From positions 96,001 to 160,000 of the forward strand of contig CAWKHF010000001.1 of the NCBI GenBank assembly GCA_963849325.1: a DNA stretch of 64,000 bases, written 5' to 3'. Source of the DNA: an uncultured Planctomycetota bacterium (GTDB lineage Bacteria > Planctomycetota > Planctomycetia > Gemmatales > Gemmataceae). The notes under the pieces are model-generated. The model searched no databases. It was not told the DNA's origin and saw only the letters and a list, made by a program, of their open reading frames with translations. Of the stretch, positions 702 to 63,422 are shown piece after piece; position 1 is the stretch's first letter, and each line of letters opens with the position of its first letter. Made by a program: the position numbers and the translations under genes.

Positions 702-1754
702 ATGAAACGGCGCGACTTTCTCAAACGAACGACCGCGGCCGGCGCGGCCGCCCTGGCGGCGAACGCGGCCCCGACGGTCCTCGGCGCCCGCGATAAGAGC
801 GGCACCAAAAACCCCATCATCGGCCACGGCGACTATCGCTACGAGTGCCTCCACGACTGGGGCCAGCTGCCCAAGCACATCCGCTGGCAGACGACTCACG
901 GCGTCACCCTCGACGATGACGGTTTCGTCTACATCAAGCATCAGGGCCACGGCGGCGCGGCCATGGACACCATCGTCGTCTTCGACCCCAAGGGCAAGTA
1001 CGTCCGCTCCTTCGGCAAGGGCTATTACCCCGGTGGTCACGGCATCGACCTCCGCAAGGAGGGCGGCGAGCCGTTCCTCTACCTGAGCGACATCCACAAT
1101 CGGCAGGTAGTCAAGACCACCCTCAAGGGCGAGGAGGTCTGGAAGCTGTGCTACCCCGTGGAGTCCGGCGTCTACGCGCGCGTCAACCAATATCGTCCGA
1201 CCAACGTGGCCTTTGCGCCGGACGGCGGTTTCTACGTCGGCGATGGTTACGGCTCCAATTACATCCATCAGTACGACAAGAACGCCCGGTGGGTCCGCAC
1301 CTGGGGAGGCACCGGCAGCGGCAACGGTCAACTGAAGACGCCGCACGGACTCTGGCTCGATGACCGCCCCGGCCGTCAGCCGTCCCTGGTCGTCGCCGAT
1401 CGCGCCAACGCGCGCTTGCAATACTTCACGCTGGACGGCAGGTATCTCCGCACCATCAAAGACGTGCTATTTCCCGCTCACTTCGACATCCGCGGCGACG
1501 TGTTGCTGGTGCCCGACCTGCACGCGCGCGTTTCGCTGTTCGACAAGGACAACAAGCCGATCGTGCATCTGGGCGACGACCCGGCGTGGCGCAAAAAGGT
1601 GCTGGACGGCTTCAAGGTGCGCGCCAGGCCGGAGGATTGGCTGCCGGGCAAGTTCGTCCATCCGCACGACGCCTGTTTCGACCGCGACGGCAACATCTTC
1701 GTCGTCGAGTGGGTGCAAACCGGCCGCGTCACGCTGCTGCGCCGCGTCGTTTGA
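702..1754 (+). CDS. Tat-exported NHL-repeat beta-propeller, PAL (peptidyl-alpha-hydroxyglycine lyase)-like
   Basis: Twin-arginine signal MKRRDFLK; motifs GHG, DGY, PHG, ADR, PHD. Confidence 0.8.
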   Translation: MKRRDFLKRTTAAGAAALAANAAPTVLGARDKSGTKNPIIGHGDYRYECLHDWGQLPKHIRWQTTHGVTLDDDGFVYIKHQGHGGAAMDTIVVFDPKGKYVRSFGKGYYPGGHGIDLRKEGGEPFLYLSDIHNRQVVKTTLKGEEVWKLCYPVESGVYARVNQYRPTNVAFAPDGGFYVGDGYGSNYIHQYDKNARWVRTWGGTGSGNGQLKTPHGLWLDDRPGRQPSLVVADRANARLQYFTLDGRYLRTIKDVLFPAHFDIRGDVLLVPDLHARVSLFDKDNKPIVHLGDDPAWRKKVLDGFKVRARPEDWLPGKFVHPHDACFDRDGNIFVVEWVQTGRVTLLRRVV

Positions 1755-9921: not shown

Positions 9922-11934
9922 TCAATCCACATACGGATCGGCGCCGAGATCCTTGAGGATTTCCTGGCGCTGGTGTTCGTGGACGAGCAGATCGACGCGG
10001 CTACGGAAGTGGCGGCGTTCGACGCGGCGCTGGGCGCGGCGAAACAGGAAGAGGTACTTGTCCCAGTCGAGGTTGCCGCCGCGCCGGCCGAACTCCTTCC
10101 ACTTCTCCTGCGTCCGGGGGCCGAGTCCTTCGAGCAGCTCGTCTTCCAGCGACAGGAAGAACTGAGCGCTGCCGGGGTCGCCCTGGCGTCCGGCGCGGCC
10201 CATGAGCTGGCGGTCGATGCGCAGCGCTTCGTGCCGCTCGGTGCCCAGGACGTGCAGGCCGCCGGCGGCCAGCACCTCGGGAGCCGGCTTGATGTCGGTG
10301 CCGCGGCCGGCCATGTTCGTGGCGATCGTCACCCGACCCGCCTGGCCCGCCTGGGCGACGATCTTCGCCTCCTGCTCGTGCTGCCGGGCGTTGAGCACCT
10401 GATGCTCGATCGCCCGCCGCCGTCAGCCGTTCGCTCAGCTTCTCCGACTTCTCCACCGAGCGCGTGCCGATCAGCACCGACCGGCCCCCGGCACGCAGTC
10501 GGCACCACCTCCTCCACCACGGCGTCGAACTTGGCGTCCTCGGTCGGGAAGACGCGGTCGGGCCAGTGGTCGCGACGGATCGGCCGGTTGGTCGGCACGC
10601 ACACCACCCAGAGCTTGTAGACGCGGCGCATCTCCCAGCGGTTCTGCAGGGCCGTGCCGGTCATGCCGGCCAGCTTCTTGTACAGGCGGAAGTAGCTCTG
10701 GAAGGTGATCTGGGCGGCGTGGTCGGACGGCATGTGTGATCGGCACGCCTCTCCTTGGCCTCGACGGCCTGGTGCAGCCCCTCGCGCCAGTGGCGATCCG
10801 GCATGCGCCGGCCGGTGAACTCGTCGATGATGACGATCTTGTCCTTGTCGATCATGTAATGCTGGTCGCGGCGGAAGCGGTAGTGCGCTTGCAGCGCCTG
10901 CTCGAGGCGCTCCTGCAGCTTGTCCATCGCTTTGCCGTGCGGCCCGGACGGCGGGTTGGAGTAGCGGGCCAGCTGCTTGCCCACGCCGGTCAGCTCGAGC
11001 TTCTGCTTCTTCGGTGTCGAAGTAGAAGTGCTCGCTCGTACTTCATCTGCTGGACGAGTTGGTCGGCCCAGAGGTAGACGATCTGCTCCTCCGGCGTGGC
11101 CGGCCGCGCTCGGCCGGCTGATGATGAGCGGCGTGCGCGCCTCGTCGATGAAGATGTTGTCGGCCTCGTCCACCAGGGCGAAGTGGTGCGGCCGCTGCAC
11201 GTTGGCGTCCTCCGGCGAGGCGCCGGCGCTCGCTCTTGAGCCAGGCGTCCCAGAACGGCGTGTCCTGGCCGCGCGCGCCGGCCACCTTGAGGCGGTCGCG
11301 CAGGAAGTCGAAGCCGAACTCCGAGGCGGTGCCGTAGGTGATGTCGCAGCGGTACGGCGCTGTGCGGTCCTGGTCGCCCATCTGCTCTGCATGACGCCGA
11401 CGCGTCAGGCCAAGGGCGTTGTAGATCGGCCCCATCCACTCGGCGTCGCGGCGGGCCAGGTAGTCGTTGACGGTGGTGACGTGGACGCCCTTGCCTTCCA
11501 GGGCGTTGAGGAACGCCGGCAGCGTGGCGATGAGCGTCTTGCCTTCGCCGGTGGCCAGCTCGGCCAGGGCGCCCTGGTGCATGACGACGCCGGCGGCCAG
11601 CTGCACGTCGAAGGGCCGCAGGCCCAGGTGACGGCGAGACGGCCACGCAGACCAGGCCGAACGCCTCCGGCAGCAGTCGTCCAGCGATTCGCCGCCGCGC
11701 GCCCGGCCGCGCAGCCGCAGGCCGGTCAGTCCGAAGCTCCGCGTCGGACAGGCGATCGTAGGTCGCTCTCCCAGTGGCGGATGCGCGGCACGTACAGGGC
11801 GGCCCGCGCCAACCGTCGCTGCCACGGCAGACCGACCAGGGCCAGCAGGGCGTTGCGCCAGCGATAACCCAGACGGTTGCGCGGCAAGGGACGGCAGGAG
11901 TGTACAACGGCTTCCGGGGATTCGGGCCGGTCAC
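9922..11934 (-). CDS. secA: Short SecA paralog (SecA2-like), multiple frameshifts; start approximate
   Basis: [55 protein letters not shown]; ends about 55 aa after FLSLED. Confidence 0.9.
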
Positions 11935-12065
11935 GGTCGATGCTCGCTCAAGGCGACGGACCTCCGCAAGAGACGGGCGACGTCTGGTCCGCCAGCATAC
12001 CAACACCGTCCGGCGCAGGCTGTACGACCTCTCCCGTGGCCAGCAAGCCGGAAGGCTGCAAACCG

Positions 12066-12127
12066 AAAAAAAACCGGCCGACTCGCTGTACCACCTCTCC
12101 CATGGCCAGCGCGAGCCGGTCGGTTTT
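12066..12127 (-). terminator. Intrinsic terminator-like hairpin
   Basis: ACCGACCGGCTCGC...GCGAGTCGGCCGG followed by TTTTTTTT. Confidence 0.7.
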
Positions 12128-12155
12128 GGTTCGCTCTCTCTCCCAGAGACGAACG
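12066..12155 (-). ncRNA. Candidate ~90-nt small RNA with two hairpins carrying GGGAG loops
   Basis: Bounded by a sigma54 promoter and a hairpin followed by U8; no credible ORF. Confidence 0.55.
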
Positions 12156-12165
12156 GCCCTCTGAG

Positions 12166-12181
12166 AGCAAACGTCGGACCA
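12166..12181 (-). promoter_or_regulatory. sigma54 (-24/-12) promoter
   Basis: TGGTCCGACGTTTGCT = GG-N10-GC with TTGCT. Confidence 0.65.
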
Positions 12182-12447
12182 ATTGCGAAACCTTCGATTC
12201 CTGCGGGGTCTTCTCATCCCGCTAATGCTTTTTACAAGCGAGTTTACGTCCAAGTGCTTCGGCGGGTCGGATCGCCGGAGCGGACGCGCTCTTCGGAGGA
12301 TCGCCCAATCGCCATGCGTTGCCTGCCCGTTCTCTGGGCGAGGGACCGGCTCGGCATCGTCGATCGGCAGAGCGAATGCGGTTGGTTGGGTCGTTTGAAT
12401 TTTCTGCATTTTGTCGATCTTGTGTCCGAAGGATAAACAGGAGCAAA

Positions 12448-12476
12448 TTGACCTCGCCCCGCCAACCTCCTAGCAT
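12448..12476 (+). promoter_or_regulatory. sigma70 promoter of cysE
   Basis: TTGACC-N17-TAGCAT. Confidence 0.7.
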
Positions 12477-12506
12477 GAAGCGGGGGTTGCATCCGGGCCG
12501 ATGCGA

Positions 12507-12560
12507 CTTTGTTTCGCCGCGACGCGAGCGAGTCGCACTGCGCGTCGCGGCGAAACAAAG
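12507..12560. repeat. Palindrome related to family A, in the cysE leader
   Basis: CTTTGTTTCGCCGCGACGCG...CGCGTCGCGGCGAAACAAAG. Confidence 0.8.
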
Positions 12561-12593
12561 AGCATAAGCGGTCCCCAACCAGTGAGCATTGCG

Positions 12594-13556
12594 ATGGCCA
12601 CCGACATCCGACTGAAGGAAGCGCTGCCGGAGATCACCGAGACCGTCGTCGCCACCTATACCGAGTGCAGCCGCACCAGCCACCTCGGCCACAAGCCGCT
12701 GCCCAGCCGCGAGGCCGTCGTCGAGATCCTCTGCGACTTGCTCGACATCCTTTATCCCGGTTACTGGCGGCGGCAGAACCTGCACATCGGCAACGTCGAG
12801 TACCACGTCGGCGACCTGATCGACGGCCTGCACGACAAGCTGACGCAGCAGATCGCCCGCGCCCTGCGGCACGAGCAGGATTGCTCGCCGGCCGAGGCGC
12901 GCGCTGCCGATCGACTTCGAGGCGTTGGCCCAGCAGAAGACGGTCGAACTGCTCAAGCGGCTGCCCGACGTGCGCATGGATCCTGGAGCAGGACGTGCAG
13001 GCGGCCTTCGAGGGCGACCCGGCCGCCAAGAGCTATCACGAAATCATCTTCTGCTATCCCGGCCTGGAGGCGGTGTCGGTCTACCGCATCGCCCACGAGT
13101 TGCTGCTGCTCGGCGTGCCGCTGATTCCGCGCATGATGACCGAACACGCCCACTCGCAAGACCGGCATCGACATCCACCCCGGCGCCCGCATCGGGCCGG
13201 GCTTCTTCATCGACCACGGCACCGGCGTCGTCATCGGCGAGACGTGCGACATCGGCCGCAACGTCAAGCTGTACCAGGGCGTGACGCTGGGGGCGCTGTC
13301 GTTCCCGCGCGACGCCGACGGCAACATCATCCGCGGCATGAAACGGCATCCGACGCTGGAGGACGAGGTGGTGGTCTACGCCAACGCCACCATCCTCGGC
13401 GGCGACACGGTCATCGGCCGCCACGCGGTCATCGGCTCCAACGTCTGGCTGACGCAGAGCGTGGGTCCGTTCGCCGTGGTGTCGCTGGAGAAGCCGTCGC
13501 TGCGCATCCGCCAGCCGGGCACCAGCGTCGAGGAGGCGCTGAACTATCAGATTTGA
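12594..13556 (+). CDS. cysE: Serine O-acetyltransferase (frameshifted)
   Basis: [42 protein letters not shown]. Confidence 0.9.
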
Positions 13557-13595
13557 ATTCGGGACGTGCGCCTTCTCGTTCCCGATCCCTGCGCG

Positions 13596-13964
13596 TCAGA
13601 TTAGTTCGGACAGCTGCGCTTCGCTCAGAGGCACGACGAAGGTGCAGCCGGCGAGGAACGTACCGTCGCCGAGCGGTTGCAGATGTTTGACGCGGACGAG
13701 GACCGATCGCGTTTCCAGGGAGGTGCCGGGAAAGCGGATTACCAGTACGGAACCCTGGGCGAACGAACGATCGACGATGAGACCGACGCCCTGCATGGAG
13801 AGATCCTGGATCTTGGCCGGGCGCGGCTCCGCTGGTTTCATGCCGAACAAATGCCAGAGCATTTGCAAGCGACGCGGTGGATAGCGCACCCACGCCCGCC
13901 GCTCCGCGGTCTGCGGCACCTTCGGCGTGCGGGTCGGCGTTGGAGCAGGATCGGCCATGCTCAT
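13596..13964 (-). CDS. Stand-alone PilZ domain protein
   Basis: RxxxR (RRAWVR) and DxSxxG (DLSMQG) c-di-GMP motifs. Confidence 0.85.
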
Positions 13965-57086: not shown

Positions 57087-57257
57087 TTTGCCCTTGTCCG
57101 TTCCCGCCTCCATCCGGTAAAACTTGGTTACGGGCGAAGGCGCGGAACGGAAGCCACGTGTGCCCGACCGCACTTTCCGCCGCTCCGGGGGATTTCTCAA
57201 AGGCGAGCGAAAATCCCTCACTTTGTGTTCCCGCACTGTCTCGAAAGGAGTCTTGCC

Positions 57258-57467
57258 GTGCTGGTCCTGTCTCGCCGTCTTCACGAGAAAATCGTTCTGC
57301 CCGGCCTCAACGTGACCATCCAGGTGGTCGCCGTCAAGGGAGGCACCGTCCGCATCGGCATCGAGGCGCCGCCGGACGTGCAGGTGATGCGTGAAGAACT
57401 GCTCGACCAGTCCCTGGCGCCGGCCGTGCTTGGCCGGAACGCCGACAAACAACTTTGTCATGCGTGA
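57258..57467 (+). CDS. csrA: Carbon storage regulator CsrA family protein
   Basis: MLVLSRR..E.I...VRIGIEAP..V.VMREEL; AAGGAG RBS, GTG start. Confidence 0.9.
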   Translation: MLVLSRRLHEKIVLPGLNVTIQVVAVKGGTVRIGIEAPPDVQVMREELLDQSLAPAVLGRNADKQLCHA

Positions 57468-63282: not shown

Positions 63283-63317
63283 AAAAGACCAGAAGCCGGT
63301 GACTTGCGTCACCGGCT
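63283..63317 (-). terminator. Terminator-like hairpin
   Basis: AGCCGGTGAC-GCAA-GTCACCGGCT then TCTGGTCTTTT. Confidence 0.55.
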
Positions 63318-63396
63318 CGCAGGAAGGTGCTTCGGGAAGTGGGTCGTAGGCATGGGAGTGGGCCGCGGGAAACAGCCCGACAAGGTATTCGATGGC
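63283..63396 (-). ncRNA. Candidate sigma54-dependent ~115-nt small RNA or attenuated leader with C-rich motifs
   Basis: Consensus sigma54 promoter upstream; ends in a 10-bp GCAA-loop hairpin plus U-rich tail. Confidence 0.5.
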
Positions 63397-63406
63397 GAGA
63401 TTGGAC

Positions 63407-63422
63407 AGCAAGTGCTGTGCCA
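63407..63422 (-). promoter_or_regulatory. sigma54 promoter
   Basis: TGGCAC-AGCAC-TTGCT, exact match to TGGCAC-N5-TTGCW. Confidence 0.8.

Follow-up and report, generated by a model that had tools for sequence, protein, structure and literature searches.

A predicted sigma-54-type small RNA gene of the planctomycete family Gemmataceae with Shine-Dalgarno-like hairpin loops

Known CsrA sites lie in a canonical A(N)GGA or CAGGAUG-like context, and CsrB/CsrC and RsmX/Y/Z, which sequester CsrA/RsmA in Gammaproteobacteria, have about 4-22 sites per molecule. Promoters of the CsrB/RsmZ type are read by sigma-70 and activated by GacA/UvrY. In Bacillus, Campylobacter, and Borrelia, CsrA takes part in a partner switch with FliW, and the hag leader carries two sites. 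Another set of small RNAs depends on sigma-54 and its enhancer-binding proteins (bEBPs), namely CrcZ/CrcY (activated by CbrB, and a sponge of Hfq/Crc), Qrr1-5 (LuxO), GlmY (GlrR), NrsZ (NtrC), and Pxr. Riboregulation in Planctomycetota is almost uncharted, with 8 annotated small RNAs counted for the whole PVC group in the table of a 2022 review (PMC9029176). Our literature search found no description of the RNA reported here or of any other Gemmata or Gemmataceae small RNA.

We analysed a candidate small RNA gene within a 64-kb window, meaning the whole stretch of DNA under study. An earlier note on this DNA had placed the element at 12181-12066 on the minus strand, and reading the minus strand across 11700-12600 confirmed both its description and its coordinates: a -24/-12 promoter, two hairpins with GGGAG and GGGAGAG in their respective loops, the second being a long terminator, and a run of eight U. 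The features of the locus are as follows.

12301 to 12342, minus strand: conserved block CTCGCCCAGAGAACGGGCAGGCAACGCA..N9..GGGCG, located 120-160 bp ahead of the -24 element.
12166 to 12181, minus strand: sigma-54-type -24/-12 promoter TGGTCCGACGTTTGCT, from its sequence and its conservation in homologues.
12129 to 12154, minus strand: hairpin 1, GUUCGUCUCU-GGGAG-AGAGA(G)CGAAC, from the minimum free energy (MFE) fold, with its loop at 12144-12140.
12074 to 12123, minus strand: core (terminator) hairpin, comprising a covarying basal stem, a 2-nt bulge, and an apical stem UGGCCAU/GUGGU(A)CA.
12066 to 12073, minus strand: U8 tract, the inferred 3' end from the sequence, giving a predicted RNA of about 88 nt.
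11998 to 12060, minus strand: second core module, with apical motif CTGGCCACGGGAGAGGTCGTACAGC at 12043-12019, matching the core-hairpin model R2 at E = 2.6e-4.
12448 to 12476, plus strand: sigma-70-like promoter TTGACC-17-TAGCAT of the divergent cysE-like gene, from a promoter scan and conserved in the genus; it bounds the upstream region of the small RNA gene.

The -24/-12 element claimed by the earlier note is present at 12181-12166 as GG-N10-GC, the 10 nt between GG and GC being the geometry of sigma-54 promoters. With GG at -25/-24 and GC at -13/-12, transcription is predicted to start at about 12155, at the base of hairpin 1. By itself, without comparison to relatives, the pattern is only suggestive, as TGGYMYN5TTGCW matched the window twice against 0.35 expected and 6 of 100 shuffles reached two matches. 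The match becomes significant because it is conserved in relatives: the T-GG and T-GC of the promoter are invariant in all 14 aligned homologues, and the 10-12 nt separating promoter from hairpin 1 are unconserved in the same alignment. The motif TGG[CT]N7-8[TC]TGC was found within -60..+25 of 57 of the 78 distinct hits of R1, a covariance model of the full-length RNA, compared with 4.2% of 5000 random 85-nt windows of the same loci. R1 has no promoter columns, so the motif near its hits was not built in. In most homologues the promoter ends 8-11 nt ahead of the R1 model start, and the hits without a -24/-12 motif, when the list was read by eye, were mostly second modules right behind a first. 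Near-variants of the promoter included TGGCACGGCAGTCGC in Zavarzinella formosa and GGTGC at another homologous locus (L021).

The source genome encodes one copy of RpoN and gave 23 matches to Sigma54_activat, 14 of them long. Upstream of the promoter, the block at 12301-12342 is kept when 12 upstream regions, drawn from the genus and two related genera, are aligned, and it occurs once in the source genome. From its position, it is a candidate enhancer (bEBP) site. Across 56 non-redundant upstream regions, TCGCCCA was found in 15, and no dyad was common to all lineages.

Homologues of the element were frequent in its own family. A DNA search of 61 genomes, including the source genome, matched 19, with matches in 9 of the 10 genomes of the genus, 18 of the 36 family genomes besides the source genome, and none of the 24 outside the family. 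Genus matches were 82-90% identical and extended from query positions 8-20 to 132-137, that is, from just before -24 to the U tract, at which relatives carry U5-U8. The conserved block thus matches the promoter-to-terminator extent of the predicted gene. Model R1 detected the RNA in 78 of 151 family genomes (53 of 90 genera), with one strong copy in the source genome and no match in 150 other Planctomycetota genomes. Model R2, built from 74 sequences and covering the core hairpin only, raised this to 101 of the 151 sampled genomes (68 of 90 genera) and gave one weak match among 15 genomes of the sister family. The 151 genomes were assigned to Gemmataceae by record titles. Scanning GTDB species genomes for an exact 20-mer gave a list of 50 stretches, one of them from the type strain Zavarzinella formosa DSM 19928, and nearly all were titled Gemmataceae, Gemmatales, or Planctomycetota; these titles identify Gemmataceae as the home family of the RNA. 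One contig titled as an uncultured Alcaligenaceae MAG (L079, CAZESP010000012.1) also carries the RNA; the contig probably stems from Gemmataceae and was mis-binned or mislabelled. Many family genomes have modules or genes in tandem or paralogous copies, for instance three units in G033 and two loci each in G013, G071, and G117. Zavarzinella formosa DSM 19928 likewise has two copies (L066:1949-2036 and 1412-1493, minus strand of that locus).

The earlier note had proposed Rfam and a covariance-model search of Planctomycetota as checks. The latter recovered homologues with conserved GGGAGAG loops across Gemmataceae, and Rfam returned no known family in either gathering-score or E-value mode: Rfam 15 gave no match at gathering score in the whole 64-kb window, and searching 11900-12300 (401 bases) at E up to 10 gave only mir-341 at 14.8 bits, a chance match. 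The two long open reading frames that overlap the element matched no Pfam family. We considered and rejected a T-box leader, given that the stretch GGUGGUAC.GCG resembles the T-box sequence. Such leaders have a stem I with a specifier loop and an antiterminator/terminator switch, and they precede genes related to aminoacyl-tRNA; here there was no match to Rfam RF00230, the predicted RNA has about 88 nt and two simple hairpins, and the neighbours are unrelated. PyrR-site, SRP, 6S, and Y-RNA were also rejected, having no Rfam match and the wrong size or context. The predicted gene of Gemmataceae is previously uncatalogued.

In the fold of the predicted 95-nt transcript (12156-12062), two hairpins are followed by a tail; the MFE is -45.2 kcal/mol (z = -3.76), a stability equalled or exceeded by 1 of 200 shuffles. 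Both the MFE fold and RNAalifold returned the same two hairpins that had been described before. The heptaloop GGGAGAG of the core hairpin lies at 12101-12095; the loop given earlier as UGGGAGAGG takes in the closing U.G pair. Once promoter bases are included, an alternative pairing rivals hairpin 1, and it uses bases upstream of the inferred start.

Covariation was strong. RNAalifold on 14 homologues gave 26 pairs, 7 of them with compensatory changes. For hairpin 1, helices 1-2, 90-96% of cells were paired and compensatory changes occurred in 6 of 6 pairs. In alignment A3 (109 model hits, 78 distinct), which was fitted to the covariance model and had 50 of its 92 source loci fished by 20-mer, 95.3% of cells were paired and 24 of 26 pairs had changed on both sides; none of 500 shuffles reached the observed values and slid controls gave 36-42%. 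The unfitted MAFFT alignment A4 (74 sequences), in which pairing was counted against a structure specified by the analyst, had 90.4% of cells paired and double changes in 17 of 19 pairs, with none of 500 shuffles reaching the observed values and slid controls at 33-42%. The A4 count also supports two further pairs (U-A and G-C) that lengthen the apical stem beyond the bulged A.

These changes bear on whether there is an RNA at all. A conserved DNA element, such as a protein-binding palindrome or bidirectional terminator, could resemble a small RNA gene, but this is very improbable: the compensatory changes preserve RNA pairing, including G.U, on one strand, an oriented conserved promoter lies upstream and a U tract downstream, and the reverse strand scored far lower (0.278 versus 2.9e-21). 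We consider a sigma-54-type small RNA gene at 12181-12066 on the minus strand highly probable from its sequence and conservation.

The two parts of the core hairpin evolve differently. Across more than 60 genera a 26-nt apical module hardly changes, in contrast to the freely covarying basal stem. Within the module, all 74 of 74 sequences share GAGAG in the loop, and at least 90% of them keep the flanking GG and the GGCCAU/GUGGU arms. In many other genera the 5' hairpin has the form GUUC-U-GCUCU-GGGAGAG-AGAGC-GAAC, with the same heptaloop, and in distant members it is GGC-GNRA-GCC instead of a second GGGAGAG loop. One homologue (L034) has the loop GAGAGAG, which contains no GGA.

We also found a third hairpin module that had been missed. 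The 25-nt apical motif CTGGCCAYGGGAGAGGTSGTACAGC gave 2 matches against 0 expected, the additional copy at 12043-12019 having 0 mismatches to the degenerate motif. In the second core module around this copy (11998-12060) the stem is mismatched and the U tract poor, and the module lacks a separate promoter. Eight genomes (G143, G141, G168, G076, G083, G023, G029, and G105) carry homologous second modules that are intact and have U tracts. The 88-nt RNA has two GGA loops, or three when the downstream module is included. A third genomic match to the loop motif, on another contig (G000:C6), sits within an RHS/YD-repeat-like coding region and was dropped as a further copy.

We next considered whether the element belongs to a neighbouring gene. 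Downstream on the same strand is a secA-like gene (SecA_DEAD, E = 2.4e-56), and divergently upstream is a serine O-acetyltransferase-family (cysE-like) gene with its ATG at 12594. The cysE-like neighbour of one homologue (L005) is an intact 334-aa open reading frame that matched TIGR01172 at E = 3.4e-49 and 167 bits, under the 210.65-bit cut-off. In the source assembly, which is 84.7% complete in 14 contigs, the secA-like (9922-12006, minus) and cysE-like (12594-13690, plus) frames are each split over two or three frames. The splits reflect assembly indel errors or pseudogenes, with indel errors the likely cause, and homopolymer lengths such as U8 should therefore be read with caution.

The sigma-54 transcript could in principle be a cis-acting leader or attenuator, forming the beginning of the mRNA for the gene downstream (here secA), with terminator hairpins that set read-through, or the element could regulate the divergent cysE-like gene. 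Among 99 partly redundant loci, 39 have secA downstream in the same orientation and 74 have a divergent cysE-like gene upstream; the second module, with its poor U tract, abuts the secA leader. Against this, downstream genes differ even within the genus (tRNA/rRNA methyltransferase-like, MoxR-like, MalQ-like, and GlmS), and the downstream gene is convergent in 4 of the 14 loci examined. Genus conservation ends at the U tract, paralogous copies occur at other loci, and in several genera an extended -10-like element, TGGTATGCT, was seen by eye between the RNA and secA. We therefore regard a leader as improbable. Because downstream genes vary and some are convergent, the RNA appears to be a self-contained small RNA gene, and its prediction as stand-alone rather than leader is held with high confidence. 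The earlier claim of an unannotated, sigma-54-driven planctomycete small RNA is thus strongly supported by promoter-to-terminator conservation, covariation, a conserved -24/-12 element, the lack of an Rfam match, and variable or convergent downstream genes. None of the 99 loci contained csrA or rpoN, and one contained a bEBP gene.

Several other observations were made around the locus. At one homologous locus (L033, G014:C5) the small RNA gene is directly upstream of glmS. The 5' UTR of the cysE-like gene contains a perfect 20-bp inverted repeat at 12507-12560, an insertion lacking in 11 aligned relatives. Its arm TTYGTTTMGCCGCGACGCG has 246 genome matches with up to 2 mismatches, and the repeat thus belongs to a REP/MITE-like palindromic family. 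A G-rich repeat, GGGGGAGAGGGGTWGGGGGTGAGGGG, has 94 matches with up to 3 mismatches, often as inverted pairs (e.g., C5:593594 and C5:665541).

To characterise the loop, we counted how often GGGAGAG is followed within 3-12 nt by ATG or GTG and an open reading frame of at least 100 codons. This was the case for 12.2% of 1452 occurrences, compared with 12-15% for canonical Shine-Dalgarno heptamers and 6-10% for non-Shine-Dalgarno controls. The GGGAGAG loop is Shine-Dalgarno-like in its own organism.

This resemblance underlies our proposed mechanism. The stand-alone gene at 12181-12066 (minus) would encode a trans-acting small RNA of about 88 nt. Sigma-54 RNA polymerase, together with an enhancer-binding activator, would initiate at about 12155; termination would occur at U8, with some read-through adding the third hairpin. 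Stable hairpins of the RNA would present the invariant purine loop GGGAGAG, with two copies in the short form and three in the long one. By molecular mimicry, these loops would serve as decoy ribosome-binding sites, resembling the organism's own Shine-Dalgarno sequences, and would bind and titrate a protein that reads GGA or Shine-Dalgarno-like motifs in hairpin loops. The best candidate partners are one or more of nine CsrA paralogues, whose mRNA targets would be freed while the sigma-54 signal is on. The analysis establishes the gene with its structure, promoter type, and conservation, and the likeness of its loop to Shine-Dalgarno sequences; that it is transcribed, that it depends on sigma-54 in vivo, and which partner it binds are inferences.

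As the earlier note stated, a csrA gene lies in the window (57225-57467, plus), one of nine paralogues in the source genome, and CsrA was found in all 151 family genomes, at 1-15 matches per genome. Judged by eye, the residues that bind RNA (L2, L4, R6, and R44) are conserved. With CsrA universal and the RNA detected in roughly two genomes out of three, their co-occurrence is uninformative. Searches of 101 Gemmataceae genomes found neither FliW nor Hfq in any of them, and ProQ was not found in the source genome. One csrA gene (C5:320684) adjoins a bEBP gene (C5:319577), 15 kb from rpoN. CsrA genes are reported as enriched among predicted sigma-54 promoters in Planctomycetia (PMC12316311). That enrichment was not reproduced in the source genome, where none of the nine csrA genes has a -24/-12 motif within 260 nt upstream.

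A CsrA decoy is favoured by the two- to three-fold repetition of a Shine-Dalgarno-like GGA loop, a layout characteristic of CsrA/RsmA decoys, by the tandem modules or genes of many genomes, by a universal and multi-copy CsrA, and by the failure to detect FliW or Hfq. It is opposed by the small number of sites and their non-canonical form. The loops had been noted to deviate from canonical ANGGA, and indeed none of the 2-3 sites has an A(N)GGA context, the loops being closed by U.G or C-G. Moreover, the invariant core is GAGAG rather than GGA, the one homologue mentioned above lacks GGA altogether, and csrA linkage is absent from the 99 loci. The near-invariance of the 26-nt module, stem included, also speaks against it; CsrA sites do not require such conservation, which suggests a partner recognising a larger part of the RNA. 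Hairpins with GGGAGAG loops elsewhere in the genome numbered 19, versus 14-26 for control heptamers; with this lack of enrichment, no family of look-alike mRNA sites was found. On balance, titration of CsrA by a Shine-Dalgarno-mimicking decoy is the single most likely mechanism, although we advance it only tentatively.

One serious rival is a base-pairing riboregulator, in which the G-rich loops (GGGAGAG and GAGAGAGC of hairpin 1) would pair with CUCUCCC-type stretches of mRNA leaders, freeing masked Shine-Dalgarno sequences, or would sponge C-rich anti-Shine-Dalgarno small RNAs. Like many seed regions of small RNAs, the loops are single-stranded, invariant, and repeated, and Hfq-independent pairing is the norm in lineages without Hfq. 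Individual sites can be named, including a C/U-rich hairpin loop, CGCUCUCUCUCC, just upstream of a Shine-Dalgarno-ATG (G000:C2:837098), and a 13-nt leader match at C4:415967. However, compared with permuted heptamers, CTCTCCC is unenriched at -200 to -1 of 2685 putative starts. The 15-nt apical complement, with at most 2 mismatches, had 20 matches (2 being the small RNA locus) versus 7 for the control, and several of them are the antisense strand of Shine-Dalgarno regions. Exact complementary runs of at least 12 nt are mostly GC-rich chance matches to the variable stem, and no outlier site emerged among long complementary runs in the source genome.

A potential partner for such pairing is encoded in the window itself:

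63285 to 63422, minus strand: second sigma-54 small RNA candidate, with the near-consensus promoter TGGCACAGCACTTGCT (63422-63407).

Downstream of this promoter come some 115 nt that include an unpaired C-rich stretch and end in a terminator hairpin, GCCGGUGAC-GCAA-GUCACCGGC plus UUCUGGUCUUUU. This candidate is conserved in 9 of 10 genus genomes, mostly as two paralogues, the second copy in the source genome being at G000:C9:340547-340688. A DNA search of 30 other genomes did not find it, and it has no Rfam match at gathering score. Its CUCCCAUG in the source genome is complementary to CAUGGGAG of the RNA, but CUCCCAUG is unconserved in 13 homologues. Pairing between the two RNAs was therefore dropped, and the earlier suggestion that the loops sequester anti-Shine-Dalgarno small RNAs found no support, the 8-nt complementarity of the C-rich candidate to the loop being unconserved in the genus. 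Base pairing would also leave the conserved stem of the apical module unexplained, and we judge it unlikely, albeit not negligibly so.

The other serious rival would account for that stem. The RNA could be a ligand for a different protein or complex that reads the whole apical module, comprising the heptaloop, the UGGCCAU/GUGGU(A)CA stem, and the bulges, possibly as a compact fold with the loop of the 5' hairpin docking on the core hairpin. The contrast between a nearly invariant module and a freely covarying basal stem is as expected for such a ligand, as is an invariant core of GAGAG instead of GGA. Replacement of the GGGAGAG loop by GGC-GNRA-GCC in distant members suggests a structural role for the 5' hairpin. 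On the other hand, synteny offers no candidate protein, the recurrent cysE-like and secA neighbours have no known RNA-binding role, and no Rfam family of protein-binding RNAs matches. Tandem duplication of modules is also more typical of decoys than of a single folded domain. We therefore place this possibility somewhat lower still.

Were the CsrA decoy correct, the invariant 26-nt module could confer selectivity for one CsrA paralogue among many. The RNA would then be the first RNA antagonist of CsrA outside Proteobacteria, a sigma-54-controlled decoy linking enhancer-dependent signalling to global translational control, although this larger claim is on the doubtful side. Whatever its partner, the RNA family is well supported, with a promoter of defined type, a defined structure, and one motif that is invariant, and it occurs in cultured strains such as Zavarzinella formosa DSM 19928. 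Control of CsrA paralogues in Gemmataceae, where neither FliW nor Hfq was detected, thereby becomes a directly testable question.

Compared with CsrB/CsrC and RsmX/Y/Z, the RNA likewise repeats a GGA-containing, Shine-Dalgarno-like motif in the hairpin loops of a non-coding RNA. Its intrinsic terminator itself carries a site, as in CsrB/RsmZ, paralogous or tandem copies exist, and the host encodes CsrA. It differs in matching none of the Rfam models, in having 2-3 sites, in a GGGAGAG loop outside the A(N)GGA context, and in a stem beneath the loop whose sequence is conserved. Further differences are its sigma-54-type promoter and a planctomycete host family with up to 15 csrA paralogues and no detected FliW. 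The RNA is, by this analogy, CsrB/RsmZ-like in its proposed working but not a member of those families.

With CrcZ/CrcY, Qrr1-5, GlmY, NrsZ, and Pxr it shares a -24/-12 promoter directly before a short, terminator-ended RNA, a conserved block as far upstream as an enhancer would lie, and, in some genomes, several copies or copies in tandem. There is no homology to these RNAs, and an activator gene adjoins in 1 of 99 loci. CrcZ sets a precedent for a sigma-54-driven protein decoy, although the motif here is G-rich and Shine-Dalgarno-like, in contrast to the A-rich motif of CrcZ and the base-pairing seed of Qrr. The CsrA-FliW systems are similar in combining CsrA and flagellin genes in a lineage outside Gammaproteobacteria, and the flagellin leader of the source genome, with ACAGGACA near its 5' end and the Shine-Dalgarno sequence AGGAGAGG, is reminiscent of the two-site hag leader. 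They differ in that FliW, the known protein antagonist of CsrA, was not found in Gemmataceae, and an RNA antagonist would putatively fill this gap.
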